DNA of 64,000 nt from contig CAYOLO010000001.1 in NCBI GenBank assembly GCA_964404855.1, positions 530,736 to 594,735 of the forward strand, in the 5' to 3' direction. The notes beneath the pieces are model-generated. The model was not told where the DNA came from and ran no database searches. It saw nothing but the letters and a program-made list of their open reading frames with translations. A program made the position numbers and the translations under genes. Shown here piece after piece: positions 11,284 through 61,342 of the stretch (position 1 is its first letter; each line of letters begins with the position of its first letter). The stretch is from an uncultured Gammaproteobacteria bacterium. Its GTDB lineage: Bacteria; Patescibacteriota; Microgenomatia; CAYQLK01.

Positions 11284-12369
11284 TTGGGTGAGCTTTTAGG
11301 TAATGCTACTATAGGTTATAATGTTTTTAGCACTTTAACTTGGTCCAGAAAAGGAGGTGTGGAATTGGCCATTAAGACCGTTCCAATGCTTACCTTCCTG
11401 AGGTTTTTGGTTACACAAAAAATATTTGTGGTCATAAGTGACCTTGAGTATGTGTTACCAAAAAAACACAGAAAGGGTGAAGTTTCTATCACGCCCGAAG
11501 TCAGAAGCGGAATTGCTGATCGGCTAGTTGCCAACAGTATTCTGCTTAATTTCGGAATTCTGCTTAAAGACGAGAGTGTGCTTGTAGTCACTGATAATTC
11601 AAAACGTCGGTGGCGTAACCTGCATCAAATCAGAAACGGTAGGATTACCGAGCAATCAATGCGCATGAGGCTCTCTGCGCTCCAGTATTTGAGATTTACG
11701 GAGATGGGGGTAAAACTGCTCGAGGAGTACAGTCCGACAACGGTTTTGTACACACTTGATTACTCTTGTTTTCGCTGGCTGACTGATCCGACACTGGTTG
11801 GTAGAATGTATTTTCCGCACGATACCTACTTACAAGCCAAAGCAACGATTGTTGAGCTCGAGGAAAAGCTTCCTTGGGTTGATAAGGAGATGCGCAGGCT
11901 TTCTAAGCAAATCGCATGGCATTACATTGACCGCCCAACATGGCCAAGGGTTTTTCGGAACCCGCAGTTCGAGTACGAATATGGACCTACTGAGCCCAGC
12001 GATTTTGTCGGCTGGCAGTGGGTTCTTGAAACCGGAAAAGAGCCGACGAGCTACTTGTCGATGCCAGATGGACCACTTAGCTACCCAAGCTATGTGAGTT
12101 TGGCAGAAAGTAGGTACCAAATTCTTTATCACCTTCGTCCAGCACTTATGGCAATCGTTCGAGAATTCGAACTGGCAGCTTGGGAGCACAAAGGAAGGTT
12201 TGCTGATAAAGGGTGGAGCAATACTCGTACCAAGAGAACTCTCTGGCAGGTTAGAGAGTTACCTGATGGTAGAGTTCTGAAGCGCCGAGCATTGGTCAAA
12301 TCAGTAAGAGTTAGGGCAGCTTCGAGCCATAATTGGAGATCGAATAGCGGTTCAGTTTCTGCAATTTAA
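11284..12369 (+). CDS. hypothetical protein, compositionally atypical (GC-rich, Trp-rich)
   Basis: Long ORF in a visibly GC-rich patch. Strong SD AAAGGAGGT at ~11350 sits 4-5 nt before an in-frame GTG at 11362, the likely true start. No recognisable family. Confidence 0.5.
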   Translation: MGELLGNATIGYNVFSTLTWSRKGGVELAIKTVPMLTFLRFLVTQKIFVVISDLEYVLPKKHRKGEVSITPEVRSGIADRLVANSILLNFGILLKDESVLVVTDNSKRRWRNLHQIRNGRITEQSMRMRLSALQYLRFTEMGVKLLEEYSPTTVLYTLDYSCFRWLTDPTLVGRMYFPHDTYLQAKATIVELEEKLPWVDKEMRRLSKQIAWHYIDRPTWPRVFRNPQFEYEYGPTEPSDFVGWQWVLETGKEPTSYLSMPDGPLSYPSYVSLAESRYQILYHLRPALMAIVREFELAAWEHKGRFADKGWSNTRTKRTLWQVRELPDGRVLKRRALVKSVRVRAASSHNWRSNSGSVSAI

Positions 12370-12401
12370 GGCTCAGTTTGGCCGAAAGGAAGTGGGTAAT
12401 G

Positions 12402-12437
12402 CCGGAGTCGTCTAAACAGCGTCTCCGGTTTTTTTTT
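12402..12437 (+). terminator. intrinsic terminator
   Basis: CCGGAG...CUCCGG hairpin followed by a 9-T run. Confidence 0.6.
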
Positions 12438-12457
12438 GTATAAAATTACAATTTTGA

Positions 12458-13630
12458 CTAAGTTTCTAGCGTTGGAGTGCTACTCTCTATTTTTGATTGA
12501 AAATATTCCCGTACTGCTTTGGTTCCAAAGGTTTCAATTACGGTCTTAAGTCTGTCTCTACTATCTGGGTCGCTAAATGCTCGGTCGATGACTTCTTTTT
12601 GTACGGCACTTATTTCCCCATTATTAGTTTCAGTACTTTTTTCAGACTCAGAGGTGGGCCCTTGAGGCGTTGAATTAGTTTCGGCGTTGCCACTCTTGCG
12701 GTTTGTAATACTAGTAAGTTTTTCGATTACGGAATTGCCGAGTGTCGCAAGTAGTTCACTATTACTGCCAGTACTTATACCTGCTCTTGCTTGAGTCGCT
12801 AGTTCCCTAGCTAAAGTTGAATAAATAGCAGAAATTGATTCTGGTGGGAGTGGTTGACCGTCATTAACGACTTGAATAATTTGTCTTTCTTTCTCCACCG
12901 CTTCTCTTTCAGCTTGTGTAATTATCGCCAAAATTGCTTTCTTTTGCGCTTCATTTGCTTTTTGCTTATTTGCAAGTTCTTCAGCTTTTGCTATTTGGTT
13001 TTTTACTAAAGTTTCTGCCTCGCCTATAAGTCTTGATCTTTCTGTTCGATCCTCTGAATCTCGAAGTCTAGAAAGAGTTTGTTGAAGCTCATCTTTAAAA
13101 GATGGAATTGGAATATGATTACCATCGCCATCAACTAAAGATTTGTAAAATGGATTTTGGGTTAGTGATGCTGTTAGGGTATCTACAGATCTTTTAATTG
13201 GAGCAAATCCTGCCTCGTTTGGATTACTAGATCTTAATCTATCTTGGATTTTTGAAACAGCAATTCTAATTTGGTCACCAAGGGTTTTATCGGCTTCACT
13301 CGCCGCTCGAAAAGTAGTTTCAAGTTTTTCAAACATGCTTACCAACTCTTCGATATCGCTATCATCTAACTCTGGCGACACATCTGTTTCTGGTTGGGGT
13401 GGTGTGTCATTTTTTACTGCTTCGAAAGTTGGGTTTTGAGGTTCAGTATGTTCAACTTGAACAGGTAAAACATCTGGGGTAGTCAAATCAAGGTGTTCTG
13501 GAAGTGGTTCTGGTTCGTGTGGAGTTTGTAATTCTACTGGAGTTTGACCGTAAACGGTTTGGTGAAGCGGATTCCCCTCACCTGATCTGTAAATTGGTGG
13601 TTGATGTTCGTCGGGCAAGATCTCAGACAT
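12458..13630 (-). CDS. hypothetical acidic protein with Pro-rich N-terminus and coiled-coil region
   Basis: 390 aa. Low-complexity PE/PQ-rich N-terminus and K/E/A-rich predicted coiled coil. No enzymatic motifs. Confidence 0.45.
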   Translation of the reverse strand: MSEILPDEHQPPIYRSGEGNPLHQTVYGQTPVELQTPHEPEPLPEHLDLTTPDVLPVQVEHTEPQNPTFEAVKNDTPPQPETDVSPELDDSDIEELVSMFEKLETTFRAASEADKTLGDQIRIAVSKIQDRLRSSNPNEAGFAPIKRSVDTLTASLTQNPFYKSLVDGDGNHIPIPSFKDELQQTLSRLRDSEDRTERSRLIGEAETLVKNQIAKAEELANKQKANEAQKKAILAIITQAEREAVEKERQIIQVVNDGQPLPPESISAIYSTLARELATQARAGISTGSNSELLATLGNSVIEKLTSITNRKSGNAETNSTPQGPTSESEKSTETNNGEISAVQKEVIDRAFSDPDSRDRLKTVIETFGTKAVREYFQSKIESSTPTLET

Positions 13631-13737
13631 AGTTGTAACCTATTATGCCAAAAAAACCATACTTAAAAAAGAGAGAACGTGATTATTTTGCGTTTTTTCA
13701 TAATTAAAGCAAGTTAATTATTCGTTTTGTGTAATTC

Positions 13738-15006
13738 TTATTTAAGGACGATGCTTGCCAAGCCAAGAAAGACAAAAAAACCAATTACATCTGTGGCGGT
13801 GGTTATAAAAATTGTTGCTGAACTAGCTGGGTCTTTGCCGAGTGTTTTCATAATTAGAGGAACTAGAGCACCAAAAAAGCCTGCAACAACAAGGTTAACG
13901 ACCATTGCTGTTCCGATAACAAATCCAAGTGATGGGCTTTGATTAAAGATAATTGCGACTGCAGCGACAATTAGACCATTAATTAAACCGTTAGTTGCAC
14001 CTGCTTTCATCTCGTTTAAGATTAGTCTATGGCCGCTTTTAAGGTCGACCTCTTTTAGTACTAGCCCACGAATAGTTACAGCCATGGTTTGTGTGCCTGC
14101 ATTCCCCCCCATTCCAGCTACAATAGGCATATAAACTGCAAGGAGTGTAAATTTTGAAATTGTATTCTCGAATAAACCAACAACCGAAGCGGCCAAAAAT
14201 GCGGTACCGAGGTTAATAATTAACCATTTGTAGCGATATTTTACTTTGGTAAATGCGGAATCTAAGGCGTCTTCTTCACTGTCAACACCTGCAAACCCAT
14301 AAAGATCTTTCATTGAGTGTTTATCGACAAGGCGCAGAATGTCGTCAGAGTGAATTATTCCTAAAATACTATCGTCTTTGTCTAAAACAACGACTTTGTC
14401 GTGTGGGTGTTTAATAAAGGAATTGACGACTTTATGTTCATCAGTATCATAAGCGAGTGCGGGTAGTTTTTTGATAAGTGAAGATATTTTTTCGAGTTTG
14501 CCGGTGGGGTGAGTGATTAGAACGTGACCAGGAAGTTCCCCTAATAACTTACCATCAGCCACGATTAAAATTGTTGGGAATTTACTATTTCTTTTTTCAT
14601 GATTAATAACTGATTCTATAATTTTGTGAATACTTTCATCGGGGCCAGCAACCACATAGTCTAGGTTCATAAGCCCCGCTGCAGCCTTTGGATTAAATCT
14701 TAAAAGAAATTCTACTTTTTCTTTAATACTTGAACTAAGTTTTTCAAGGATATTTTCTGCTCTTCTTTCGTCAATAAGTTGGAGAATGTCGGTGACTTTA
14801 TCAGGATCAGGGTAGTTAAGTAGTGTAATTAATTCGTCGTCGGTTAATTTGGATAAAATTTCCTTTTGTATTTTGGTTGGTAGTTTAAGGAGAGCTATAC
14901 CTTGGTTTTTTGGATCAATTTCTAAAAAAACCGTTAATCTTTCTTGTGGGGAGGTTTCTATTTTTTTGACTGCTTTGTCGACCGATGCGCCGAAGGTGTT
15001 TGGCAT
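13738..15006 (-). CDS. mgtE: magnesium transporter MgtE
   Basis: MgtE-N domain, tandem CBS region and C-terminal TM domain ...ATDVIGFFVFLGLA. Confidence 0.9.
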   Translation of the reverse strand: MPNTFGASVDKAVKKIETSPQERLTVFLEIDPKNQGIALLKLPTKIQKEILSKLTDDELITLLNYPDPDKVTDILQLIDERRAENILEKLSSSIKEKVEFLLRFNPKAAAGLMNLDYVVAGPDESIHKIIESVINHEKRNSKFPTILIVADGKLLGELPGHVLITHPTGKLEKISSLIKKLPALAYDTDEHKVVNSFIKHPHDKVVVLDKDDSILGIIHSDDILRLVDKHSMKDLYGFAGVDSEEDALDSAFTKVKYRYKWLIINLGTAFLAASVVGLFENTISKFTLLAVYMPIVAGMGGNAGTQTMAVTIRGLVLKEVDLKSGHRLILNEMKAGATNGLINGLIVAAVAIIFNQSPSLGFVIGTAMVVNLVVAGFFGALVPLIMKTLGKDPASSATIFITTATDVIGFFVFLGLASIVLK

Positions 15007-15365
15007 ATGACAGTGATTTTATGGTTATTTACAATTATTACCAAATTTTCACTTTGTTTGCTTACTTTACGTGTTAAAAATAACTACAGGTTACGAATTT
15101 CTATTAATTTGTACCCAAGAATATTTACTATAGTCTTATAGTTAGTTTGCGATTTAAACGAAGACATGTTATACTAGTTCAATATTGAGGCAGATTGAAG
15201 CAATAAATCTGCTTATATTTTTAGACATATTCTTTTGTCAGTTTGGATAAAGATACTCTGTTCCATTTAAGTTTAATTAGTATCTTTAAATCTTTGATAA
15301 TGATTGTTGTTTTCCTATGTAAGCGGTTTTATTGCCTTGATTTTTCCCTCACAAGAAAAAAATAA

Positions 15366-16607
15366 ATGAATCGAAATAGTTACAGTTCAAGACCGTCTTT
15401 TGGCGGCCGAGATAAACCTCGGGGTGGCTCTCGCGGGAATTTCCATCAATCACGTTCTGGTGGTGGTTTTAGTTCTGGTGGTCAAAACCATTTCAGAAAT
15501 AAAATCAAATATATGGACCCAAGGCTAATTATTAAAAAAGAGGCCGAATTTGTTAAATCTGACCCATATATTGCAACCAATACGTTTGCTGACTTTAATA
15601 TTGCTGAAAAAATTAAACAGAATATTATTTCCAAAGGTTATACCTCCCCTACTCCCATTCAAGATCAGGCTATAAAACCAGCTTTAGAAGGCAAAGATGT
15701 AGTTGGAATAGCTAATACCGGTACAGGAAAAACAGCTGCATTTTTAATTCCTTTAATTAATAAAGTCTATATTGATCGTAACCAAAAAGTATTAATTGTT
15801 GCTCCAACTCGAGAACTAGCTGTTCAAATCAGAAGTGAGTTTGCGGATTTTACAGAAAATGCTGGTTTAGTTTCAGTCCTTTGTATAGGTGGAGTAAATA
15901 TTCGCCCTCAGTCTCAAGCGCTCAAAAATCCATATCATTTTGTAATTGGTACACCAGGAAGAATCAAAGATCTTAAAAATCAAAATAAATTAAATATTGC
16001 TGGATTTTCAACAATTGTTTTGGATGAAGTAGACAGAATGCTTGATATGGGTTTTATTAATGATATTAAGTTTATTATTTCGCATCTTCCAAAATTCCGA
16101 CAGTCGTTATTTTTCTCAGCGACAATGACTCCAGGTGTAACAGAGGTAATGAAATCACTTTCTGATAACCCTGTGACGATTTCTGTTAAGAAACAAGAGA
16201 CTTCCTTAAACGTTGATCAAGATGTGATTAATGTAAGGGGTGCAAATAAGCTTGATATTTTACATGACCTACTTATTCAGGATGGTTTTGGCAAAGTTTT
16301 GATTTTTGGCCGAACCAAATGGGGGGTGGAAAAATTATCGCGTGCTTTGGAACAAAGAGGATTTAAGGTTGCTGCTCTACACGGAAATAAAAACCAAAAT
16401 CAAAGACAGAGAGCTTTGGACTCGTTTAGAAATGACAAAATTAATATTCTTCTTGCGACAGATGTTGCAGCTCGTGGGCTTGATATTGATAACATAACTC
16501 ACGTAATTAATTACGAACTACCCGAAAGTTATGATGACTATGTTCATCGTATTGGACGAACTGGTAGAGCTGAGAAAAAAGGGTCTGCTATTACATTTGT
16601 AGATTAA
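15366..16607 (+). CDS. DEAD-box ATP-dependent RNA helicase with RGG/Gly-rich N-terminus
   Basis: Q-motif, TGTGKTAAF, DEVD, SAT, HRIGRTGRA. Confidence 0.9.
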   Translation: MNRNSYSSRPSFGGRDKPRGGSRGNFHQSRSGGGFSSGGQNHFRNKIKYMDPRLIIKKEAEFVKSDPYIATNTFADFNIAEKIKQNIISKGYTSPTPIQDQAIKPALEGKDVVGIANTGTGKTAAFLIPLINKVYIDRNQKVLIVAPTRELAVQIRSEFADFTENAGLVSVLCIGGVNIRPQSQALKNPYHFVIGTPGRIKDLKNQNKLNIAGFSTIVLDEVDRMLDMGFINDIKFIISHLPKFRQSLFFSATMTPGVTEVMKSLSDNPVTISVKKQETSLNVDQDVINVRGANKLDILHDLLIQDGFGKVLIFGRTKWGVEKLSRALEQRGFKVAALHGNKNQNQRQRALDSFRNDKINILLATDVAARGLDIDNITHVINYELPESYDDYVHRIGRTGRAEKKGSAITFVD

Positions 16608-16776
16608 TTATTGTGCTTAGGAAAAATTTAGATATAATTATTAGATAAATATATTTTAAAGTATTAAGTTAAGTTGTGTTGGTAATCGTAATTCCGAAAG
16701 AATCATCTCCAAAACATCTAGAATTAAATATGAAAGTTAATAGTAAAAATGTTTGTAAAGGGGGTGAAATCAATTA

Positions 16777-17064
16777 ATGGCAACTAAATTATTTGTTGGA
16801 GGACTAGCTTGGGGTACCACTGAAGAGTCTTTGAACTCAATGTTCGCTGAGGCTGGATCAGTTGTTTCCGCAGTAGTAATCAAAGACAAATTCACCAATC
16901 GTTCTAAAGGTTTCGGTTTTGTAGAGATGTCTTCGCAAGAAGAAGCTGACAAAGCAGTCGAAATGTTCAACGGAAAAGAACTCGATGGTCGTGCAATCAC
17001 GGTCAACGAAGCTCGTCCAATGGAACCTCGCGAAAACCGTGGTGGATCTGACAGAAGGTACTAA
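16777..17064 (+). CDS. RRM-type RNA-binding protein (Rbp-like)
   Basis: RNP2 LFVGGL and RNP1 KGFGFVEM. RGG tail. Strong SD AAGGGGGTGA. Confidence 0.85.
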   Translation: MATKLFVGGLAWGTTEESLNSMFAEAGSVVSAVVIKDKFTNRSKGFGFVEMSSQEEADKAVEMFNGKELDGRAITVNEARPMEPRENRGGSDRRY

Positions 17065-17287
17065 TTAGTACCGACAATTAAAATTCCCCAGTTTAGCTAA
17101 AACTAAATATGGAAGTATTGCAAGTGCCGCTTGGTTGTGGAGATTTTTTTTGGCTACTGAAAAACGTAATTGCAGTGATTGAAGTAATATCCGATTTGTT
17201 TTAAAGACTGGTGGGGTGTCGATAATCAAAGTAGTTTTGGTAGAGCAATGAGAAATACCTTAAGGTTTCTGACTCAGTATTAAAGAA

Positions 17288-17761
17288 TTATTTTTTGGAT
17301 TTTGTGATTTGAGCAGATTTTTTCATGACTAACATACTGGCAATAATTACCGAAAAAGCAATAAGTGCCATAACTGGAATTGACATAAATCCAAAATAAT
17401 TAACATATTTTGATCCGCATGAAGCTGTAATATCACAAGTAATTGATGTTTCGGATACAATACCGTTCTGAAGTAAAACGTGATAGAAAGCAATTAGCCA
17501 GCCAATAATGCCAAGTGGAAGTACATATAGATATAGTTTTTTATCATTTCGAATTAGGCCAACAATTATGATTACCACGATTGGATAAATCAAAATTCTC
17601 TGATACCAACAAAGTTGGCATGGGATATAACCTCTTACCTCGCTGTAGTAAAGACTGCCTAACATTGAAATAATAGCTTGCATAAGAGCAATGTAAGCGA
17701 TGTTTTCGGTGATGTAAGATTTAATTTTTTTCAACCTTTTATTGTTTGTATTTATACTCAA
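17288..17761 (-). CDS. disulfide bond formation protein B (DsbB/BdbC family)
   Basis: 4 TM. PCQLCWYQR and a second Cys pair CDITASC. Confidence 0.75.
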   Translation of the reverse strand: MSINTNNKRLKKIKSYITENIAYIALMQAIISMLGSLYYSEVRGYIPCQLCWYQRILIYPIVVIIIVGLIRNDKKLYLYVLPLGIIGWLIAFYHVLLQNGIVSETSITCDITASCGSKYVNYFGFMSIPVMALIAFSVIIASMLVMKKSAQITKSKK

Positions 17762-17957
17762 TTAAATTGTATTAGGATTGTACACTAGGTTTGTTAAGAA
17801 CTGCTTAATGTTTTCGATTATATCAAATACTTACAGCTGATAAAAGGCCCTTTGTAAACTAAATGCGCACCAGAATATCTGTGTTTTTTTGCATTAATCT
17901 CACCTTATTTGTTTTAAAAGAGTTGCTCTGAAGAAAAAAAAGTTTTTGTGATATGGA

Positions 17958-17986
17958 TTGACAATAATTGAAGCTTATACTAGAAT
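17958..17986 (+). promoter_or_regulatory. sigma70-type promoter
   Basis: TTGACA - 17 nt - TAGAAT. Confidence 0.5.
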
Positions 17987-17989
17987 GCC

Positions 17990-18226
17990 TCAAAACGTTG
18001 AGTTGGGAGAATGGGCCCAACGAAGCTGTTAGGGCTACGTTGATTGGTGAATTAAATAGTAGCCAATACGGAATTCAACCGTTAAACAGAGTGGCCAATG
18101 TCACTAAATGTGGAGTTGGTTAAAGAGGTTGCTAGCTGTAAGGCTGGCAACGAAAGCAAGGTGGCAACACGATATAGATCGTCCTTGCAGGATTTACACG
18201 CGTAAGTTCTGCAAGGACGATTTTTT
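17990..18226 (+). promoter_or_regulatory. T-box-type riboswitch leader (putative) with antiterminator/terminator
   Basis: Stem III hairpin GUUGCUAGCU-GUAA-GGCUGGCAAC (18128-18151). AAGG-[UGGCAAC]-ACGAU-AUAG-AUCGU-CCUU (18158-18186) matches the T-box antiterminator layout. Overlapping terminator stem 18179-18190 / 18209-18220 plus U6. Confidence 0.55.
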
Positions 18227-18272
18227 GTTCTTTAACATCACCAAACAACTAAAAAGAAGGTAGGAAAGAAAA

Positions 18273-19610
18273 GTGATAACGAAGATTAGTTTACTAGGTC
18301 ATTACACTGCCAAGCAGGCAGCACGCGAAAAACTTTATGACCAAGTTGGTTATAAGGTTCCGCTTCTTAGCTTGTCTGCAGATCAGCGGCTTGGGATTGG
18401 GCCAATCGATCGAATTGTCAAAAGCGGCAAAAGTCTAACTTATGAGCAGGCCTATGGCGGCATGCTCTTGGTTTTGGCTGCCACCAACCAAATGATCGAG
18501 GCCGAACTACGAAGGGTATGGTCCGAATTCCCATCGTCGGAGGCTCTCAAGTACAAGGCTGTTAGTTTTTTGCAACTAATGGCTACCAAAGAGGCGCTTC
18601 AGTGTATTACCGCTGAAGAAGTGGCTGGGTGCGTTGCTGCAACCCTGCTAGATGTTGTGCCGCTTGATCTGACTGACGAGCCAATCGTCGAAACCTGTGG
18701 AATGGGTGGGGATCAGGGATTCCTAATTGGTGGCCGGCCGTTTAAGACTATCAATGTCTCAACGCTGACCTCGTTTGTGCTAAGTGCGCTCGGGCATCTA
18801 GTCGTCAAACACGGGTCGTATGGAAACACCACAGCCGTGGGATCCACTGATGCCCTAGACCTTCTGGGTGCTCGGACAACACAACAGAGTTTGAAGGAGA
18901 TTGAAACTCTCTTTGCGGCCACAGGGTACTACTACGCAGACGCGCACAACTTCAAAACAGTTCATGATTTGTCGCATCTGCTGGGTCACGAGACGATCAA
19001 CCACATCATTGGTCCGATGACTTTGCCGCTTCGCTTGAACCAGCCGATCTACAAGATCATGGGTGTGAACGATAAGGTGAGTCCTCAGACTGTCGCCCTC
19101 AGCTACCAGATCTTGGTAGAGAAAGGATTAATAAATCTAGTCAACGGTGCAATCGTTGCCGGCTTGGCCGATGACGTTTCCGGTCAGAACTTGGAAGAAT
19201 TGGGTTTTGCAAACCAGGTAATTCTGGATGAGCTTAGCCCAGCCAGCTCGGTTGTTGCGTTCATTCGCGCCGGCCGTTTCGTGGATCAGAAAATCATTAC
19301 TCCAAGAGACTTTGGAATAAGTTTGTCTTGGGATGATATTCTGGTTGATTCCGAAATCGCCAGCGTAAAACAAGCCAACTTGACTGCGTTGGAATCCGGT
19401 TCTGCTGGACATCCATTGCAGAGTTACTTGGCCATGAATGCCGCACTCGGACTTTTTGTCATCAAAGATTTGGGGGGACTTGATGACGACTCAGAGTGGA
19501 CAGAAAGGCTGAAGGTTCGATATCAGGAGTGCTTAGCGGTACTTCAGTCCGGAGCAGTTAGGGGGTTGGTCAAGAGTTATTCTGGTATATCGCGCAGAAT
19601 TAGTTTTTAG
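18273..19610 (+). CDS. trpD: anthranilate phosphoribosyltransferase-like (glycosyl transferase family 3)
   Basis: ETCGMGGDQG...INVST...VVKHGSYGNTTAVGSTDALDLLG matches TrpD GTGGDG/NxST/KHGNR...GSADxLEALG. GTG start with SD GAAGGTAGGA. ~60-aa N-terminal extension. GC-rich. Confidence 0.7.
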   Translation: MITKISLLGHYTAKQAAREKLYDQVGYKVPLLSLSADQRLGIGPIDRIVKSGKSLTYEQAYGGMLLVLAATNQMIEAELRRVWSEFPSSEALKYKAVSFLQLMATKEALQCITAEEVAGCVAATLLDVVPLDLTDEPIVETCGMGGDQGFLIGGRPFKTINVSTLTSFVLSALGHLVVKHGSYGNTTAVGSTDALDLLGARTTQQSLKEIETLFAATGYYYADAHNFKTVHDLSHLLGHETINHIIGPMTLPLRLNQPIYKIMGVNDKVSPQTVALSYQILVEKGLINLVNGAIVAGLADDVSGQNLEELGFANQVILDELSPASSVVAFIRAGRFVDQKIITPRDFGISLSWDDILVDSEIASVKQANLTALESGSAGHPLQSYLAMNAALGLFVIKDLGGLDDDSEWTERLKVRYQECLAVLQSGAVRGLVKSYSGISRRISF

Positions 19611-19620
19611 TGCGATATGG

Positions 19621-19659
19621 GGTCGTAGTTGAGTAAAATCAACTGCGGCCCTTTTTTTT
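19621..19659 (+). terminator. intrinsic terminator
   Basis: 12-bp stem (GGUCGUAGUUGA/UCAACUGCGGCC, with G-U pairs) followed by a T8 run. Confidence 0.6.
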
Positions 19660-19699
19660 GACCAATACAAAATTAGACTGTTGTTTATTCCTTAAAAGT

Positions 19700-20530
19700 C
19701 TATTTTTTGGCTTTACGAACAAACTCTTTTGCTTTTTTTCTAACCAGCCGATTTTGCCAAGGAAATAAATTAGGCTCAATTTCCTTATTAGAAACAGTAC
19801 CTTCTTTTAATGCTGTGCCGACAATAATGACGTCAGCATATTTTTTAAGTTCCGTAATGTTGATTTTGTCTGCACCACTGCCGACAATTATTGGCACTTT
19901 GGTTGTTTGGCGAGCTGATTCTAAATCATTTGTTAATGGTCGATCCCCTGTCCACTTGCCAGTGATAATTATTCCATCACTTCCCTCCTTTTCTGCTTCT
20001 TGGACGGCTTCTGAAAGAGGTCGCGGATTTAATAAAGTTGAGTGCTTGACTTGAACATCAGTAAAAAGGCAGATTTCTGTGGCATTATGATCAGCTTGGT
20101 ATTTTTTGATAGCTTTATGATTGGGATGAATAGTGAAACCGTACATGGTTTCGATTTTATCAACAAAAACAGGTATTCTTACAAAATCTAAATTTTGCTC
20201 ACTCGCAATATCAATGGCAGTTTTGTAGTCATTCCACAACACACATAATCCAATTGGTAAATAAGTAACTGTTTTAATTTTTTTGATTACTGCATTTAGC
20301 TGCTTCTTTGCCTTATCAGGAATAAATTCTGTATGAGGAATATCATAATTATTTTCGATTAAAATAGCATCAAAACCGGCTTCATTTAATACTAAAATAT
20401 CTTCTATGGCTAGCTTGGTAATTGTGTTTAATCCTGGGGAGTTGTCATAACCAATTAGTGGTGCAAGATGAACCATCCCAATTATATATGGGTGTTGTTT
20501 TTTAATTGAGTCTAAGAGTTTGTTCTTCAC
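19700..20530 (-). CDS. BtpA/SgcQ-family TIM-barrel protein (putative)
   Basis: N-terminal IGMVHLAPLIGYDNSPG resembles the BtpA family signature. Assignment from memory only. Confidence 0.5.
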   Translation of the reverse strand: MKNKLLDSIKKQHPYIIGMVHLAPLIGYDNSPGLNTITKLAIEDILVLNEAGFDAILIENNYDIPHTEFIPDKAKKQLNAVIKKIKTVTYLPIGLCVLWNDYKTAIDIASEQNLDFVRIPVFVDKIETMYGFTIHPNHKAIKKYQADHNATEICLFTDVQVKHSTLLNPRPLSEAVQEAEKEGSDGIIITGKWTGDRPLTNDLESARQTTKVPIIVGSGADKINITELKKYADVIIVGTALKEGTVSNKEIEPNLFPWQNRLVRKKAKEFVRKAKK

Positions 20531-20726
20531 GCCCTAAATTATAGCAGTATGATTTCTCAATGATTGTTTTACTGGACAAGTTCATTGAGTTTTATGTGTT
20601 ATTATGAGCTACAAAATTAAGGAAATTTAGGGATGGTGTAATTGAGTCGGAAATGAACTTTAAAACAAATGATCCACAGTGGAATTAATTGCCGCCAAGT
20701 GAAGATGTTAGGTTAAGGAGAAGGAC

Positions 20727-21296
20727 TTGATAAAGGTTATTATGTTTGATTGGTTTGGAGTGTTGTGCTCTAAGGTTTTTCAAGACTGGGTAGATCAAAA
20801 TACTTTGGATCCGGAGGGGCTTCGGAAGTTGCGGAATCTGGCCGATCAATTGGATTTAGGTCGAATCAGTCTGGATGCCTTTTATGATTCGATTGGTACA
20901 GTCGTAAACAAATCGGGTTCGCAATGCGGAACCGAGCTCTACTCGATGGTTCGAATCGATGGGGAAATGAGCGAGATAGTTAGGCAATTGCGTAAGCAAT
21001 ATGTCGTTTCTGTTTTGTCTAATATCCATGAAGAATTCTTGGCTAGACTTCTTTCTGATCACCCAGACATTAATCCCGATGTGGTTATGACCAGTTCAGA
21101 GCTTGGAGCTCTTAAACCAGATCCGCTGATTTTTGAGCGGGCATGTGAGAGGCTCCGGGTTAGTGCCGGCGACATTCTATTTGTTGACGATTCGGAGCTT
21201 AATGTCTCAGCAGCCAGACGAGTAGGATTGTTGGGCATCCTTTTTACTACTCCGTCTGAGTTAAGGGCTGAACTAAAAATTAAAGGAGTACTTTAG
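20727..21296 (+). CDS. HAD-superfamily hydrolase
   Basis: TTG start with SD AGGAGAAGGA. Motif I-like VIMFDWFGVL. ...FVDDSELNVSAARRVG motif IV region. Confidence 0.65.
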   Translation: MIKVIMFDWFGVLCSKVFQDWVDQNTLDPEGLRKLRNLADQLDLGRISLDAFYDSIGTVVNKSGSQCGTELYSMVRIDGEMSEIVRQLRKQYVVSVLSNIHEEFLARLLSDHPDINPDVVMTSSELGALKPDPLIFERACERLRVSAGDILFVDDSELNVSAARRVGLLGILFTTPSELRAELKIKGVL

Positions 21297-21315
21297 CAAA
21301 AAGATGACGAAGTTA

Positions 21316-21347
21316 AGGCGTCCACAAACAAGTGGGCGTCTTTTTTT
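21316..21347 (+). terminator. intrinsic terminator
   Basis: GGCGUCCAC...GUGGGCGUC hairpin followed by a T7 run. Confidence 0.55.
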
Positions 21348-21499
21348 AGCTTTTTTCTAATCCTTTTTAGAGAATAGCTTATAATTTTAAAATCACAATA
21401 TTATTGACAAACTATTCCAAGTATGCTAAATATGTTCCTCAAGAAGAAAGAAAGGATTGTTGGGACAGCTAGTCTAGTGACACGAAAGTGTCCAAAGGT

Positions 21500-21573
21500 G
21501 CAAGTGTGGTCCAATGGAAGGGTGTCGGTCTCCAAAACCGAAGATAGGGGTTCGATTCCCCTCACTTGTGCCA
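21500..21573 (+). tRNA. tRNA-Trp (anticodon CCA)
   Basis: Hand-folded cloverleaf. Acceptor GCAAGUG/CACUUGU. Anticodon loop CUCCAAA. T-arm AGGGG-UUCGAUU-CCCCU. Discriminator G. 3' CCA is encoded. Confidence 0.85.
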
Positions 21574-21650
21574 AAACACATAAGCGTTCGAGTCTGTCGA
21601 GCCAACAACGAAGCGGGAGTTATAGCAACTACCTATTTGACCTTCTGAGC

Positions 21651-21686
21651 GCCCAGTAGTTGATTTCAACTGCTGGGCATTTTTTT
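21651..21686 (+). terminator. intrinsic terminator between tRNA-Trp and trpS
   Basis: 12-bp stem GCCCAGUAGUUG/CAACUGCUGGGC with a 4-nt loop, followed by a U7 run. Confidence 0.7.
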
Positions 21687-21738
21687 AGCTCTTTAACACC
21701 ACCAACAACAAATTCAAAATTGCAAAGGACAAGGAAAG

Positions 21739-23271
21739 ATGATCAATCTAGGCGTGGAACCGATGCCGTTGGAGCTCGCTCGTTTAAGGCTAGATGGTCT
21801 TGACGGCGAGATTATTACGCTAGTCGCTGCTCGACTGAAAATGGTGCAGCGTGACAGCGTTTTTCTGCAGAAGCAGATACAAGATCTGGTTAATTTGGGC
21901 ATGAGCCCAGGTTTTGCAGAAGCCTATTATCGTCTTCTGACGGAAGAAGGATTGAGGTCTCAGTTCGAGACACAGGACGTTGGGCAACTGGACGAGGTTT
22001 TTCAGCTCAACGAAATCGACCGCCAGCTTCTGGCTTTGGTTGTGGAGAGGATGGATATTTCCATCGCTTTAACCAAGACCAAACTGAACAACAACATCGC
22101 CATCGTTCATCCTGAACGGGAAGAGGCAGTTCTTCAAGGTCGTGCAGAGAAAGCTCAGAATCTGGGAGTTAACGCTGACTTCACGAAACGTTTGTTCCGC
22201 CTCCTCATGGATGAGGGTGTGCGAATACAACGGGAAGTGTGGCAAACGTCAACCCTCAAAAAAAGGATTCTGACGGGAGTACGTCCAACTGGACCGCTGC
22301 ACCTTGGTCATTATGTCGGTGCTCTGAAAAGTTGGCTTGAGTTTCAAGAGACTTACGAGTGTCTTTTTCTCATCGCTGACTATCAGGCACTGGGAAGCCA
22401 CATCGATAAGCCGGAGCTGATCCGAGACTCTGTCTTCCAGGTCACACTTGACTGGTTGGCTGTCGGTCTCGATCCCAACGCGTCGTCGTTCTTTGTTCAG
22501 AGCTACATTCCGGAGCATGCTGAGCTTGCACTGCTGCTTAGTATGCTGATTCCCTGGAAACGGCATATTGGCAACCCGACACTCAAAAGCGAAATGGCAG
22601 ACATGGAGTCTGAACATAACGCCATGAGTCTCGGATTCGTCAATTATCCCGCTAGTCAAGCGGCCGATATTCTTCTAATGAAGGGCGATCTGGTCCCTGT
22701 AGGTGAGGATCAGCGTCCGCACATCGAGGAAACTCGGCGAGTGGCACGGGAATTCAATCGACGGTACGGCGAAAACCGTACTATCTTTCCAGTTCCGAGA
22801 ATTTACACTGGAGAAGTATCGCGATTGGTGGGTCTGGATGGTGATGCGAAGATGAGCAAAAGCAAGGGCAACACCATTGATTTGCGTGATGACCCTGAAA
22901 CAGTTCGAAAGGCCGTAATGCGGATGTTCACCGACTCAACCCGTCTCCGCGCGACCGATCCTGGTCACGTGGAGGGAAATCCAGTCTTCATCTACCACGA
23001 TATCTTCAATCCTGACGTGGATGAAGTTGCAGACTTGAAGGCGCGCTATGTTCTCGGCAAGGTCGGCGATGTTGAGGTGAAGGTCAAATTGGCTAAAGCC
23101 CTCAACCAGATGCTCGATCCTATCCGCGAGCGGCGTGCGTACTTCGAGGCGCATCCAACACAAGTAAAGGATGCGCTGATTGCAGGCACAGATCGGGCAA
23201 GGAAAATTGCCGAAGAAACAATGAGAGAGGTTCGCGAAGCGATGCGCATCACGCGCTACGCCGAAGGTTAA
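21739..23271 (+). CDS. trpS: tryptophanyl-tRNA synthetase with ~180-aa N-terminal extension (two AroQ chorismate-mutase-like helical repeats)
   Basis: C-terminal ~330 aa carries HIGH (TGPLHLGH) and KMSKS (KMSKSKGN) of class-I TrpRS. The N-terminus has LELARLRLDGLDGEIITLVAARLK and IDRQLLALVVERM...HPEREEAVL...RLFRLLMDEGVRIQRE. SD AAGGA. GC-rich. Confidence 0.8.
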   Translation: MINLGVEPMPLELARLRLDGLDGEIITLVAARLKMVQRDSVFLQKQIQDLVNLGMSPGFAEAYYRLLTEEGLRSQFETQDVGQLDEVFQLNEIDRQLLALVVERMDISIALTKTKLNNNIAIVHPEREEAVLQGRAEKAQNLGVNADFTKRLFRLLMDEGVRIQREVWQTSTLKKRILTGVRPTGPLHLGHYVGALKSWLEFQETYECLFLIADYQALGSHIDKPELIRDSVFQVTLDWLAVGLDPNASSFFVQSYIPEHAELALLLSMLIPWKRHIGNPTLKSEMADMESEHNAMSLGFVNYPASQAADILLMKGDLVPVGEDQRPHIEETRRVAREFNRRYGENRTIFPVPRIYTGEVSRLVGLDGDAKMSKSKGNTIDLRDDPETVRKAVMRMFTDSTRLRATDPGHVEGNPVFIYHDIFNPDVDEVADLKARYVLGKVGDVEVKVKLAKALNQMLDPIRERRAYFEAHPTQVKDALIAGTDRARKIAEETMREVREAMRITRYAEG

Positions 23272-23310
23272 CCCTGACTCAATCGCTCTAGGGCCACAAG
23301 TAGCAGTGAT

Positions 23311-24390
23311 GTGATTTTGTGGCCCTTTTTCTTGAAAGGAAAAACGGTGAAAAAATCCATAGGGGGATGGCTCAATTCAGTAGCGGTTTTGGCGGTAATA
23401 TCCGGATTCGCTGCCGGTATTTACAGCTTGTCTGACACCCATGTGGTTGTCAGGTATTTCACTGACTCGACAGACAAAACAATCGGGTCATTGATCTACG
23501 TCGTCGTCGGTTCTTGGATCGGCTGTCTCTTATTTTTGCCTCAAGGGCAATTTCTGGGGCGCTGGCTAAGCCGTGATCAATTCCAGGGATGGCAAAGGCC
23601 TCTCGGAAGGGATTGGTTGTATGTTTGTGGCGCTGGTTTTACCGGAGCCGGAGCAACCTTTTTCTATCTTTTAGGTTTGAGCCGCTATGGCCCATCGCGA
23701 GTAGTGGTACTTTCCTCTGCGGTGCTGGTCTTGCTGCTCATGCTTGATTTTGTTAGGAGGAGGATAGATCTGTCCATGACTTTTCCAGCCTCAATCGTTT
23801 TCTTGGGAATACTATTGTCGAGTATTAACTTCGAGGATGGTATCAAGATCTCGGTAGGGCTGATTCTAATCGTGCTGATTGCACATAACTTTCTGTACGT
23901 GATCTCTATTTGGTTTTTCCAGGCTGGATCACGACGAATGGACTCAATCAATTTCACCTTCTGGCGATTTCTGTCTTTCGCAGTCTTTGCCACAGTCTTT
24001 GTCGTAATTTGGGTCGTTGTCGCCGGTAAGGTTGGAATTTTCCAGGATGTTCTTTTTGGGGGATTTACCGGTGCGCTGCCCTTTATTCTTTTTACTATGA
24101 TCTTTGGGTTCCTTGAGGTTGTCTTAGAATCTCAAGCTCGAAGAGACGGTGGAAAGATGTCAATGGTGAGCTTTCTAAAGCAGAGTGCCATCATTCCGGC
24201 GATGTTTTTGACCTACCTGTTGAACTGGATCTGGGTGGGGTCCCTCGGTGACGTTGCAACTGATACTCAATCGGTTGTGATCAGAGTCGGTGCAGCAGCG
24301 ATTGTTCTCTTGGGACTTTACCTCTTGACCAGACGAAAGCTGGTTGAGGAGCAGGAAATAGAAAGCGAGGAGATATTAGTCGTCGTTTAG
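23311..24390 (+). CDS. 10-TM integral membrane protein, possible DMT/EamA-type transporter
   Basis: Hydrophobicity pattern of two 5-TM halves. GC-rich. 40 nt downstream of trpS. Confidence 0.45.
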   Translation: MILWPFFLKGKTVKKSIGGWLNSVAVLAVISGFAAGIYSLSDTHVVVRYFTDSTDKTIGSLIYVVVGSWIGCLLFLPQGQFLGRWLSRDQFQGWQRPLGRDWLYVCGAGFTGAGATFFYLLGLSRYGPSRVVVLSSAVLVLLLMLDFVRRRIDLSMTFPASIVFLGILLSSINFEDGIKISVGLILIVLIAHNFLYVISIWFFQAGSRRMDSINFTFWRFLSFAVFATVFVVIWVVVAGKVGIFQDVLFGGFTGALPFILFTMIFGFLEVVLESQARRDGGKMSMVSFLKQSAIIPAMFLTYLLNWIWVGSLGDVATDTQSVVIRVGAAAIVLLGLYLLTRRKLVEEQEIESEEILVVV

Positions 24391-24395
24391 TGTCT

Positions 24396-24425
24396 GGGGA
24401 ATGCATAAAGCATTCCCCTTTTTTT
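24396..24425 (+). terminator. intrinsic terminator
   Basis: GGGGAAUGC-AUAAA-GCAUUCCCC followed by a U7 run. Confidence 0.7.
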
Positions 24426-24492
24426 ATGAAAAAAAATAAATTTTGAAGTAAAATATGCAAAATAAACAAGGCTTGTTATTAAAAGTTGTAAT

Positions 24493-25230
24493 TTGAAATA
24501 TCTTCAGATGATTGTCGTTCAAAAACAAGATAAAAAAATTTCAGTATTCTCAACATATTCGACTGATAAAATAATTAAAGATGGTCGAGTAACCACAAAT
24601 ACTGGTGGGCCTCTATTTTTTATCGAAAAGGCTCTAGAAAATTGCAGCGTTCCGTATGTTTCGCACCATGGAGAGACAGTAAATGTTGAGATTAAGGTAA
24701 ATAAAGATGGAGAGGTTGGTCGTGTAATTGGTATACAAAATAAAACTAAAAAAGTGGAAGACTTAAATGCCAAATTTCTTCTGATATCAACAATTTTTAA
24801 TGAATGGAATCTGCAAAAAATCGGCAAATCGAAAGCTAAAATTTTTGTGGATATACAAGGGTTTGTTAGGGGTGTTAATAAATTTGGGGCTAAAGTAGTA
24901 TGGGAAGACAGTATCAAATACTCTAAGCAAGTATATTGTCTAAAAGGAACAGAGGAGGAAATGAATTATTTGCCTAAAAATGTTTATGAAGACCAAAAAA
25001 ATCGCTTACTTGTAATAACTAAAGGTAAAAAAGGGGTTGAATGGTATTTAAAAGGAAAAAAATATTTAGCACTGATACCAAGAGAAATAAAATCTCCAAA
25101 TGCTGTGGGGGCGGGAGATACTTTTTTTGGGTATTTTGTGGCAAATATTTACAAAGGCAAAGGAATAAAATTTTCGATAGATAATGCTATAAGTAAAACT
25201 TCAGAATTTTTGGAGTCGAAAAATTATTAA
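24493..25230 (+). CDS. PfkB-family carbohydrate kinase-like (short)
   Basis: C-terminal NAVGAGDTFFG (PfkB signature 2). 245 aa. Confidence 0.5.
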   Translation: MKYLQMIVVQKQDKKISVFSTYSTDKIIKDGRVTTNTGGPLFFIEKALENCSVPYVSHHGETVNVEIKVNKDGEVGRVIGIQNKTKKVEDLNAKFLLISTIFNEWNLQKIGKSKAKIFVDIQGFVRGVNKFGAKVVWEDSIKYSKQVYCLKGTEEEMNYLPKNVYEDQKNRLLVITKGKKGVEWYLKGKKYLALIPREIKSPNAVGAGDTFFGYFVANIYKGKGIKFSIDNAISKTSEFLESKNY

Positions 25231-25482: not shown

Positions 25483-25552
25483 AAGGATGTTGGCTAAAAA
25501 ATAGCCTGCTGATTATATTTTATAAAACACTTTTTTCCAACCAATAGAACAA

Positions 25553-28458: not shown

Positions 28459-28460
28459 AT

Positions 28461-34598: not shown

Positions 34599-34812
34599 AA
34601 AGTCAACCCAATAAGATTTGGGCAGATTTAATGTAGGAAATGTTAAAAAAATACAAAGAAGCCCAACACAACCCTACATAATTGTGTCGAGAAATCTACG
34701 CAAAACTCTATCTCCATTATATATACTCGTCCTAGCTGATGTCTATGTTATTCCAATAATTTAAAGATATTTTTGTATTACTTGTAATTAATTTTGTTAG
34801 TATTTAAAAGTT

Positions 34813-61251: not shown

Positions 61252-61342
61252 TTATAGGTTTACATTTAAGTAATTATACTATAGAATATCTACAATTAAT
61301 ATTTAACTAAAATTAATAATTAACTAACAAGTATTATAGGTT

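Follow-up and report, generated by a model that had tools for sequence, protein, structure and literature searches.

GC-rich tryptophan-related genes of a Curtissbacteria genome: probable members of an old T-box-associated island of the Candidate Phyla Radiation rather than a recent import

The 64-kb stretch of contig CAYOLO010000001.1 (assembly GCA_964404855.1; hereafter, the window; overall GC content 35.9%) comes from a member of Candidatus Curtissbacteria, a group of Microgenomates within the Candidate Phyla Radiation (CPR), and contains, between 11.3 and 24.4 kb, three conspicuously GC-rich patches. Patch 1 consists of an orphan gene, patch 2 of a gene for a TrpD-like protein that is preceded by a Trp-specific T-box leader, and patch 3 includes tRNA-Trp, a gene for a fusion of chorismate mutase (CM)-like domains with tryptophanyl-tRNA synthetase (TrpRS), and a gene for a DMT-type permease (Table 1). 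A preliminary description of this region tentatively interpreted the Trp-related genes as an imported Trp-handling module that was recently acquired from a donor with a higher GC content. The annotations proposed there for the leader, the trpD-like gene, the tRNA, the CM-like-TrpRS and the transporter with 10 transmembrane segments (10-TM) hold by Rfam, Pfam and ARAGORN analysis, and the functional set is indeed Trp-related, recurs in about 30 CPR species and is larger than originally described; it is the import that is not borne out. We consider it reasonably probable that patches 2 and 3 represent the GC-rich part of a conserved, vertically inherited, Trp-responsive island of CPR genomes, not a recent foreign module, and that, as part of the same interpretation, the GC richness is a long-standing property of these genes.

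Sliding-window and 200-nt binned profiles show a GC content of 0.46-0.49 between 11.6 and 12.4 kb, up from about 0.30-0.35 around it, 0.49-0.535 between 18.4 and 19.6 kb, and 0.45-0.535 between 20.8 and 24.4 kb, so that the three patches lie where they had been described. In the 200-nt bins, the edges at 19.6 kb (0.49 in 19400-19599 to 0.33 in 19600-19799) and at 24.4 kb (0.50 in 24200-24399 to 0.245 in 24400-24599) are abrupt. When GC content was calculated per gene and codon position, the excess was found to reside in synonymous sites: the GC content of the third codon position (GC3) of five GC-rich genes within 11.3-24.4 kb is 0.42-0.54, which corresponds to z = 5.0-8.9 relative to the 37 other genes of the window (mean 0.264, sd 0.031, maximum 0.345). 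Every synonymous family is shifted in the GC-rich genes (Leu TTA from 0.38 to 0.06, Arg CGG from 0.02 to 0.16, Lys AAG from 0.21 to 0.46), G3 and C3 each increase about twofold, and the amino acid usage moves in the same direction, with K, N and I down and R, A and V up. Each patch is one transcription unit with a terminator at its end, and the intrinsic terminators noticed previously are all identifiable (Table 1). The contrast with AT-richer flanks holds for btpA, mgtE and the helicase gene but not for the HAD phosphatase gene, which is itself GC-rich.

Several trivial causes of the compositional anomaly were rejected. The plus strand carries all rich genes but also the AT-rich genes for PfkB and the helicase, which argues against a strand or replication effect. 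Amino acid composition fails for the three patches given that the shift is present inside every synonymous family. An assembly chimera is incompatible with the presence of the arrangement on 12 independent contigs, and L001 and L003 are 99.9-99.98% identical to the window.

The TrpD-like family is restricted to CPR. About 170 relatives are detectable, and all named ones come from CPR (Parcubacteria, Paceibacterota, Azambacteria, Uhrbacteria, 'Patescibacteria group'). In a scan of one genome per GTDB species, full-length members (33-96% identity) were found only in 29 metagenome-assembled genomes (MAGs) of CPR (L010-L038), followed by ordinary TrpD with 24-34% identity. The CPR status of these MAGs was assigned by record name or gene content, and other labels (Gammaproteobacteria, Woesearchaeota, Saccharibacteria) were taken as mislabels; the MAGs that carry the CPR-specific island under a different label are L010, L018, L022, L023, L026 and L037, and at least the label of L010 is wrong because its gene is 96% identical to the Curtissbacteria gene. 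In a neighbor-joining tree, the TrpD-like sequences from the window and the syntenic relatives L007 (GCA_039738135.1) and L008 form a clade with 100% support, which is the sister group of WWE3/Microgenomates-type sequences. The identity of the TrpD-like protein to its counterparts in the syntenic relatives declines from 96% (L010) to 75% (L007) and 56% (L008), and that of the neighboring BtpA protein is in step with it (71% to L007 and 52% to L008). Because the tree is host-like and the divergence proceeds in step with BtpA, the TrpD-like gene appears to be vertically inherited.

The genomic context is conserved across CPR as well. Among the 31 loci analyzed, the island includes BtpA, a TIM-barrel protein of the BtpA/SgcQ family, in 28, TrpRS in 20, a PfkB-like kinase in 8 by clustering (about 10 by tblastn), and the DMT permease in 7, always right after TrpRS; tRNA-Trp is present in 13 of the 28 other CPR loci. 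The layout of L035 is identical to that of the window, namely, TrpD-like(+) BtpA(-) TrpRS(+) DMT(+), the order tRNA-Trp, TrpRS, DMT recurs in L027, L030 and L036, and homologs of the DMT permease are encoded immediately 3' of TrpRS in L008, L025, L027, L035 and L036. Because the AT-rich btpA and pfkB genes are recurrent neighbors across the CPR loci, they form one island together with the GC-rich genes; btpA, which had been taken for a native flank, and pfkB are core island members.

These observations bear on an import scenario in which a donor of higher GC content from another lineage than the host, such as Chloroflexota, supplied each of the three patches recently and in an independent event, leaving a foreign Trp module that has not yet drifted to host composition. 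The large GC3 deviation (z of 5-9) with a general shift to G and C and matching amino acid usage, and the sharp boundaries at promoters and terminators, are what such a scenario would predict, but the TrpD-like family is found in CPR only and its tree agrees with the host group, other CPR have an identical layout, and the AT-rich BtpA and PfkB are part of the same island. Neither is a donor visible for the DMT permease and the orphan protein, which have no relatives outside the lineage among 5.8e9 and 1.84e9 proteins, respectively.

The GC excess itself appears to be old. In L007, the GC3 of both the TrpD-like gene and the orphan is 0.42 vs 0.25 for BtpA and 0.32 for the background; in L008, the values are 0.47 for the TrpD-like gene, 0.47 for CM-TrpRS and 0.43 for DMT vs 0.27 for BtpA. 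In L010, too, the region is retained in syntenic order and is rich in GC. Identity at four-fold degenerate sites is at the random level between the window and L008 and, for mgtE, also between the window and L007. The GC anomaly thus predates splits that are saturated at synonymous sites, and therefore, a recent origin is excluded. Across CPR, the GC3 of the TrpD-like gene is higher than that of the adjacent, usually co-directional btpA in 25 of 27 loci (mean +0.115, Wilcoxon 7e-8), the GC3 of TrpRS is higher than that of BtpA in 16 of 17 loci, and the TrpD-like excess is seen at background GC3 values between 0.16 and 0.87. A gene-specific offset that persists over this range of backgrounds speaks against transfer with simple mixing and in favor of a force that acts on particular genes. 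Amelioration alone was judged insufficient to account for the pattern, given that the estimated decay at four-fold sites, which is a crude bound, requires an ancestral GC3 of at least about 1 for the lineage of the window. Recent import is thus largely refuted for the TrpD-like gene, the T-box, the DMT permease and the orphan, and, for the three patches as a whole, we consider it quite improbable.

The comparison with classical GC-deviant genomic islands leads in the same direction. The region resembles such islands in having sharp-edged segments with deviant GC3 and codon usage and in being located, in the window, beside a tRNA gene. It differs in that no integrase or transposase was detected among the open reading frames (ORFs) of 9-35 kb, where repeats were not specifically searched, in that the gene content and order are conserved across the whole radiation, and in that the deviation is common to orthologs whose divergence exceeds synonymous saturation.

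Averaged over CPR, the offsets are modest (TrpD-like +0.06, TrpRS +0.07, BtpA -0.05, PfkB -0.12), which would be compatible with codon bias linked to expression, or with an otherwise trivial situation in which the rich genes are more highly expressed or 'core' and the local background is lowered by AT-rich accessory genes. The mildly raised GC3 of the gene for a probably abundant RRM protein (0.354 in the window, 0.43 in L007) is in line with this possibility, but z-scores of 8-9 are far beyond that gene. Furthermore, housekeeping genes of the window are not raised (GTPase 0.25, DEAD helicase 0.225, a 1365-aa protein 0.28), all codon families as well as G3 and C3 shift equally, with no particular codons favored, and the orphan and the poorly conserved permease are among the GC-richest genes. 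We therefore see little chance that this type of bias underlies the patches.

The regulatory component of the island is the T-box leader, which is preceded by a sigma-70-like promoter, the best promoter-like site in the 15-kb region scanned. The leader matches the RF00230 model with 54 bits (E-values 1e-9 to 6e-11), whereas the gathering score is 93. It contains the candidate specifier UGG at 18012-18014 within GAAUGGGCC (GAAUGGG context), in a putative short Stem I, and the T-box core AAGGUGGCAACACG at 18158-18171. Folding yields an antiterminator (18156-18188) with a 7-nt bulge, UGGCAAC, and an overlapping 20-bp terminator (18178-18221; -37 kcal/mol, z = -7.3) that is followed by a U-tract; the two folds are mutually exclusive. 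The C of the T-box UGGC is complementary to G73 of the local tRNA-Trp, and the context of the UGG specifier is invariant in L007, L008 and L010. In a motif search, the T-box core was detected 100-250 nt upstream of the TrpD-like gene in 21 of the 31 loci, and in all these 21 leaders, UGG is present in the equivalent specifier context; a further, partial leader was recovered from L023 with a profile. In the alignment of the 21 leaders, 91% of the antiterminator cells are paired, compared to 42-54% in slid controls, and 7 of the 11 pairs show compensatory changes, values that were reached in 0 of 500 shuffles. Of the 13 loci that have a local tRNA-Trp, 11 show a base N in UGGN that is compatible with the tRNA discriminator base. 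Thus, involvement of a T-box RNA switch in the mechanism of the island is well supported, with the switching itself expected by analogy with the T-box family.

At the Rfam gathering threshold, neither the window nor any of seven other CPR loci yields a T-box, and the scores across the window and its close relatives L004, L007 and L008 are uniformly weak (37-54 bits); the leaders described here were detected using E-value thresholds, motif searches and a custom nhmmer profile. Standard annotation overlooks the T-box leaders of CPR. A literature search combining T-box with CPR or Patescibacteria found no report of a T-box in CPR, probably because these leaders score below the Rfam gathering threshold. 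Compared to the transcriptional T-boxes of the Trp class in RF00230, which are known from trpS and trp leaders of Firmicutes and from Chloroflexota, the leader in the window likewise has the T-box core, a UGG specifier with a purine after it, an antiterminator whose 7-nt bulge contains UGGN and which competes with an intrinsic terminator, and a trp-family gene under its predicted control; moreover, the profile made from CPR leaders also detects leaders upstream of Chloroflexota-type trpS. The differences are the much shorter Stem I (37 nt vs 88 in the model), the target, which is a remodeled TrpD paralog instead of an aminoacyl-tRNA synthetase (aaRS), a canonical trp gene or a transporter, and the host, which is a CPR bacterium.

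The TrpD-like protein scores 97 bits against the TIGR01245 trpD model, under the equivalog cutoff of 199. The AlphaFold2 model of this protein (pLDDT 91.9) retrieves with Foldseek, as the top 50 matches, exclusively anthranilate phosphoribosyltransferases (AnPRT), with target-normalized TM-scores of 0.8-0.86 and about 20% identity, and the family profile matches Sulfolobus solfataricus TrpD at 1e-26. Compared to AnPRT (S. solfataricus 1O17/1ZYK, Mycobacterium tuberculosis 1ZVW), the TrpD-like protein has the same two-domain NP-II/AnPRT fold, shares the motifs that bind phosphoribosyl pyrophosphate (PRPP) and Mg, namely, GxGGD (GMGGD), NVST, KHG, GS[TA]D (GSTD) and DE-SP (DELSP), and is linked in the genome to Trp genes and a Trp T-box, but it is about 100 residues longer, with an N-terminal helical extension, and has no trpE, G, C, F, A or B alongside. 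The KHGNR motif is changed to KHGSY, with the Asn of KHGN replaced by S182 in the profile alignment to 1GXB, and the Arg aligned with SsR164 (MtR193) is replaced by an invariant Glu240 inside an invariant ETxNH motif; C142, H225, H231, H235 and H244 are additional invariant residues of the family. The replaced Arg and Asn are those that we take to bind anthranilate in AnPRT. Accordingly, this protein is treated here as a predicted PRPP-dependent transferase with a changed acceptor and not as TrpD. TrpD2/YbiB and the NP-II paralogs (thymidine and AMP phosphorylases) similarly are TrpD paralogs with the same fold that function outside the Trp pathway; the top structural and profile matches of the TrpD-like protein, however, are all AnPRT, no head-to-head comparison with YbiB being included, and unlike the NP-II paralogs, it has no PYNP_C domain and retains the PRPP motifs. 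In P0247, P0248, P0265, P0279 and P0281, a HAD phosphatase is fused to the TrpD-like protein.

The synthetase of patch 3 combines two tandem CM-like domains with a complete bacterial TrpRS. The TrpRS part (residues 174-502) scores 268 bits against TIGR00233 (trpS), above the cutoff of 177, and matches Pfam tRNA-synt_1b at 2.6e-62; Pfam CM_2 is matched with 63.9 bits (cutoff 27), and an internal repeat is detectable within the CM region (37-84 / 126-173). In the second repeat, R104, K115, R127, E128 and Q164, which are kept in 8 fusions, align with R28, K39, R51, E52 and Q88 of EcCM, suggesting that the CM_2 domain keeps equivalents of these catalytic residues; EcCM D48 aligns with His and S84 with Gly, and the equivalent of R11' would need to come from the degenerate first repeat. 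In a literature search, no report of a CM-TrpRS fusion was found. Similarly to bacterial TrpRS with appended domains and aaRS xenologs, the protein in the window is a complete class I TrpRS above the TIGR00233 cutoff, with its nearest unfused kin in Chloroflexota; the difference is that the fusions carry one or two N-terminal CM_2 (AroQ-type) domains, in which the equivalents of catalytic residues listed above are conserved.

The phylogenetic affinity of the TrpRS core is ambiguous. The top 120 database matches to its catalytic part show 61-67% identity, and all named ones come from Chloroflexota, Dehalococcoidia or SAR202; Chloroflexota typically have T-boxes, which are present at the closest trpS loci of this group. 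The TrpRS of other CPR island loci are 48-54% (WWE3-type) or 31-39% (Parcubacteria-type) identical to that of the window. The tree unites the WWE3-type sequences, the fusions and Chloroflexota with 100% bootstrap support, and the fusions with Chloroflexota to the exclusion of other CPR with 74%, without resolution of the monophyly of the fusions. However, the fusions are as similar to the Chloroflexota TrpRS (65% identity) as they are to each other (65%), and therefore, the relationship with Chloroflexota is real but looks old, such that any transfer would be ancient. It may stem either from such a transfer or from common ancestry combined with unequal rates. The search for nearest relatives that had been suggested as a check on import thus placed the TrpD-like protein and the DMT permease within CPR or the host lineage, contrary to import, and gave an ambiguous answer for the Chloroflexota-like TrpRS core.

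The closest unfused TrpRS genes (59-64% identity, GC content 0.48-0.64, probably from Chloroflexota) have a T-box motif upstream of trpS in 12 of 72 loci; the motif is directly upstream in L092, L094, L096, L098-L100, L103, L107-L109, L120 and L125. In L108 (5129-7677), trpS is followed by trpE, and in L122 (8271-13784), by trpE-G-D-C-F; in the latter, AT-rich locus, trpS shows no GC enrichment. Because the closest unfused trpS genes often follow a T-box motif and, in L108 and L122, precede trpE or trpE-G-D-C-F, the CPR island looks like a remnant of a T-box-trpS-trpEGDCF operon of Chloroflexota-type genomes. The metagenome scan that was performed with the fusion alignment returned almost exclusively unfused TrpRS and is informative for the trpS-trpE context, not for the contexts of the fusion.

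The composition of the fusion genes raises another alternative, namely, that the T-box/TrpD-like and tRNA-Trp/CM-TrpRS/DMT units are mobile cassettes that shuttle repeatedly, by homologous replacement at the conserved island, between CPR lineages of differing GC content, so that their own composition stays intermediate (GC3 of about 0.45-0.63) without ever equilibrating with a particular host. Indeed, the GC3 of CM-TrpRS is 0.46-0.63 in every context (0.54 in the window, with a background of 0.26; 0.46 in L089, 0.47 in L008, 0.63 in L090), and in L009, it is 0.51, below the 0.60-0.70 of the neighboring genes. The TrpRS of the window pairs with P0002 (83% bootstrap) and not with L008, the sequence upstream of tRNA-Trp and the pre-gene hairpin are shared with L090, and close relatives differ in whether they have the HAD gene. 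Exchange is apparent at short evolutionary distances. The four-fold site divergence from L010 is 0.04-0.16 in the RRM, TrpD-like, BtpA, CM-TrpRS and DMT genes vs 0.6-0.9 in the backbone, that is, 4-15 times lower in the blocks, and is negatively correlated with GC3 (Spearman rho -0.65, p = 0.007). The resulting mosaic is exemplified by the RRM gene (16777-17064; 0.05) and DMT (0.04) as opposed to mgtE (0.94) and an MFS gene (0.75), the divergence of the latter type being high despite 98-100% protein identity. This pattern points to frequent recombination between Curtissbacteria populations, and the island block appears to have been recently exchanged among close Curtissbacteria strains. Over longer distances, however, the TrpD-like protein and BtpA diverge in step (window, L007, L008), with a host-like TrpD-like tree, and in the GC-rich L017, L021, L026, L032 and L033, the TrpD-like gene is mostly still GC-richer than the background and btpA, the opposite of regression to the mean. 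In addition, btpA lies within the exchanged block but is AT-rich, and L009, L089 and L090 are short contigs of uncertain taxonomy. We consider shuttling cassettes to be unlikely, although less so than recent import or expression-linked bias.

Several observations weigh against the interpretation that we favor, an old, vertically inherited, Trp-responsive island. The 'background' of L008 is made up of BtpA and PfkB alone, two genes with an AT bias throughout CPR, and the comparison within this locus is accordingly weak. The general codon and amino acid shifts match those of a gene from a donor with about 50% GC, and the patches coincide with whole, sharp-edged transcription units, in a cassette-like manner. 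The TrpRS core is nearer to Chloroflexota (62-67% identity) than to L008 (54%) or other CPR (31-54%). The gene for P0002, the nearest relative of this TrpRS, has a GC3 of 0.63, and the L009 cassette is GC-poorer than its GC-rich neighbors, values that fit a cassette moving between hosts. The T-box is not visible in 8-9 of the 31 loci, and no trpB or other route to Trp is encoded in any island locus. Finally, the force that would maintain GC3 is putative, and regional biased gene conversion alone is a misfit because btpA is AT-rich despite its location inside the exchanged block.

If the island indeed is an ancestral Trp-responsive unit, the following mechanism can be proposed. The strong promoter would drive the Trp-specific T-box leader; the anticodon of uncharged tRNA-Trp would pair with the UGG specifier, and its free G73-CCA end would pair with the UGGC bulge. 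This pairing is predicted to stabilize the antiterminator over the terminator, allowing RNA polymerase to read into the TrpD-like gene. The TrpD-like enzyme might then cooperate with the BtpA barrel, the HAD phosphatase and the PfkB-like kinase in phosphoribosyl chemistry on a Trp-related precursor other than anthranilate and so raise the supply of Trp; this chemical step is speculative. The adjoining tRNA-Trp, TrpRS, here endowed with two CM-like domains, and DMT permease, a possible transporter of Trp or its precursor, would belong to the same system. The GC richness of the TrpD-like, TrpRS, DMT, orphan and HAD genes would be upheld by a force other than recent import, for example, GC-biased gene conversion or selection acting on the composition of codons or mRNA.

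Patch 1 is a genuine protein-coding gene that is restricted to this lineage. The protein is Arg-rich and, as had been remarked, Trp-rich, with 12 W in the 361-aa ORF (11-12 W depending on the start), but the true start is likely to be the TTG codon at 11365, which yields 334 aa; the database relatives align from query residue 28-50 onward. No Pfam or NCBIfam match was found, and the only three relatives among the representative proteins (64%, 46% and 23% identity) all come from this lineage. The ortholog in L007 is 57-58% identical and has no stops, and an ORF of 334-361 codons is kept in L007 and L010. The AlphaFold2 model, built from a 6-sequence alignment, is unusable (pLDDT 42.8). A structured RNA was considered for this patch and rejected, with no Rfam match at E <= 1 and the ORF conserved in L007 and L010.

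Table 1. Features of the GC-rich patches and of associated genes. Positions refer to the window unless a locus is named.
Feature	Position	Strand	GC3	Description
Orphan gene (patch 1)	11365..12369	+	0.44-0.46 (0.457 over 11386-12369, z = 6.2)	Likely 334 aa from TTG 11365 behind AAGGAGG; mechanical ORF from 11284, 361 aa
Terminator hairpin, end of patch 1	12402..12437	+		CCGGAG...CTCCGG followed by T9, between convergent genes; read from the sequence, unlisted by the consensus scan
Sigma-70-like promoter	17958..17986	+		TTGACA-17-TAGAAT, 11/12 consensus matches, just upstream of the T-box leader
Trp-specific T-box leader	17989..18227	+		Rfam RF00230, full-length match at 17989-18189
TrpD-like paralog (patch 2)	18273..19610	+	0.52	445 aa; Pfam Glycos_transf_3
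Intrinsic terminator of the T-box/TrpD-like unit	19619..19652	+		14-bp stem, T8
BtpA/SgcQ-family TIM-barrel protein	19700..20530	-	0.27	Pfam BtpA 1e-48; 258 aa by gene callers; AT-rich
HAD-family phosphatase	20727..21296	+	0.42 (0.421)	189 aa; Pfam Hydrolase/HAD_2
HAD terminator	21315-21342	+		Terminator scan
Putative tRNA-Trp promoter	21404-21432	+		TTGACA-17-TAAATA, read from the sequence
tRNA-Trp (patch 3)	21500..21573	+		Anticodon CCA, G73, CCA encoded; ARAGORN and Rfam
Terminator-like hairpin after tRNA-Trp	21651-21678	+		Terminator scan
CM-TrpRS fusion (patch 3)	21739..23271	+	0.54	Two tandem CM type-II-like domains (residues 1-170) and complete bacterial TrpRS (174-505)
DMT/EamA-like permease (patch 3)	from 23311	+	0.525	10-TM, 347-359 aa; weak EamA match, 22.5 bits vs cutoff 28.2; 40 nt downstream of TrpRS, co-directional
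DMT terminator	24396-24418	+		Terminator scan
PfkB/ribokinase-family kinase-like protein	24493..25230	+	0.23	240-245 aa; Pfam PfkB over the C-terminal part only; AT-rich
mgtE			0.30	Host-like
Helicase		+	0.225	Host-like
CM_2-methyltransferase, L011	8192-9325
CM_2-methyltransferase, L012	668-1795
CM_2-methyltransferase, L013	8412-9536
CM_2-methyltransferase, L031	13947-15146
CM_2-methyltransferase, L034	1189-2565
CM_2-methyltransferase, L038	11208-12350

Among the other island members, BtpA scores 160 bits against TIGR00259 (cutoff 153), and no literature was found on the pairing of TrpD with BtpA or relevant to the function of BtpA. The HAD gene is located between btpA and tRNA-Trp only in this species group; it is missing in this position in L007 and L008, where tRNA-Trp directly follows btpA, and shows weak similarity to the HAD-like genes of other loci. 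The DMT permease has no NCBIfam match, and its only three database relatives all belong to this lineage. The PfkB-like protein shows weak NCBIfam matches to ribokinases and nucleoside kinases. The neighbors of the island in other loci include an AstE/AspA-like hydrolase (9 loci: L011-L013, L016, L018, L019, L022, L024, L031), a group-II decarboxylase dependent on pyridoxal phosphate (5 loci, listed among L017, L021, L022, L028, L029 and L009), and a nucleoside hydrolase and a GNAT acetyltransferase (three loci each). The decarboxylase, the AstE/AspA-type deacylase-like protein, the nucleoside hydrolase and the acetyltransferase are possible contributors of further steps of the island pathway. 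In 6 Parcubacteria-type loci (Table 1), a CM_2 domain (27-29% identity) with apparently intact catalytic residues is fused to an S-adenosylmethionine (SAM)-dependent methyltransferase encoded beside trpS. This arrangement recalls CmoA, which makes carboxy-SAM from prephenate for tRNA modification.

Two further contexts of the CM-TrpRS fusion were observed. Upstream of the gene for P0002 (region 120-330 of L090), there are two tandem, distinct tRNA-Trp(CCA) genes, both with A73, and the promoter-leader sequence CAAGAAG.AAGAAAGGATTGTT.GGAC of L090 and the hairpin preceding the synthetase resemble 21440-21470 and 21651-21678 of the window. The fusion P0005 (L089, 1098-2324; GC3 0.46 vs 0.27-0.33 for the AT-rich neighbors) is encoded next to PAP2, DUF5674 and GNAT proteins, with no TrpD-like or DMT gene nearby.

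Elsewhere in the window, a fourth GC-rich stretch (29.5-34 kb) lies inside the gene for a 2045-aa repeat-rich surface protein (GC2 0.52, GC3 0.378) and is mostly driven by amino acid composition. This stretch is part of a 9.2-kb segment (25549-34793) that encodes a MacB/FtsX-type ABC permease, an ATPase and the surface protein. The segment is present in the window and in L001 and missing in the 96%-related L010, where 25549 abuts 34793; it appears to be a strain-level insertion or deletion. A 155-aa ORF on the minus strand (61556-62023) shows an inverted codon-position GC pattern (GC1 0.26, GC3 0.545) and is probably spurious, lying antisense to a real plus-strand gene in the gap 61251-62032.

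CPR bacteria are thought to be Trp auxotrophs. In a broader and distinctly tentative interpretation, CPR might possess a previously unrecognized, T-box-induced Trp-starvation pathway, in which the remodeled TrpD, as a PRPP-dependent transferase with a new acceptor site, BtpA, as a barrel of the ribulose-phosphate type, the small PfkB-like kinase and the HAD phosphatase would turn a host-derived precursor into Trp or a surrogate. This pathway would be coupled to tRNA-Trp, TrpRS and a dedicated permease, with the CM-like domain, on TrpRS or on the neighboring methyltransferase, serving to sense or supply an aromatic intermediate, and the stable GC richness would reflect selection on the mRNAs. 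Sharp GC islands, even with z-scores of 8-9, need not date a transfer, which calls for caution in composition-based identification of transfers in CPR. With the divergent, short-stemmed leaders described here, which fall under the Rfam threshold, CPR would join the lineages that use T-box riboswitches. The conserved TrpD paralog and BtpA, as predicted targets of the T-box, offer a handle on the sensing of Trp shortage in ultra-small, host-dependent bacteria, and the island provides a first functional context for the uncharacterized BtpA/SgcQ family. The CM-TrpRS fusion and the CM-methyltransferase encoded beside trpS point to a so far unexplored connection of aromatic intermediates with the charging of tRNA-Trp.

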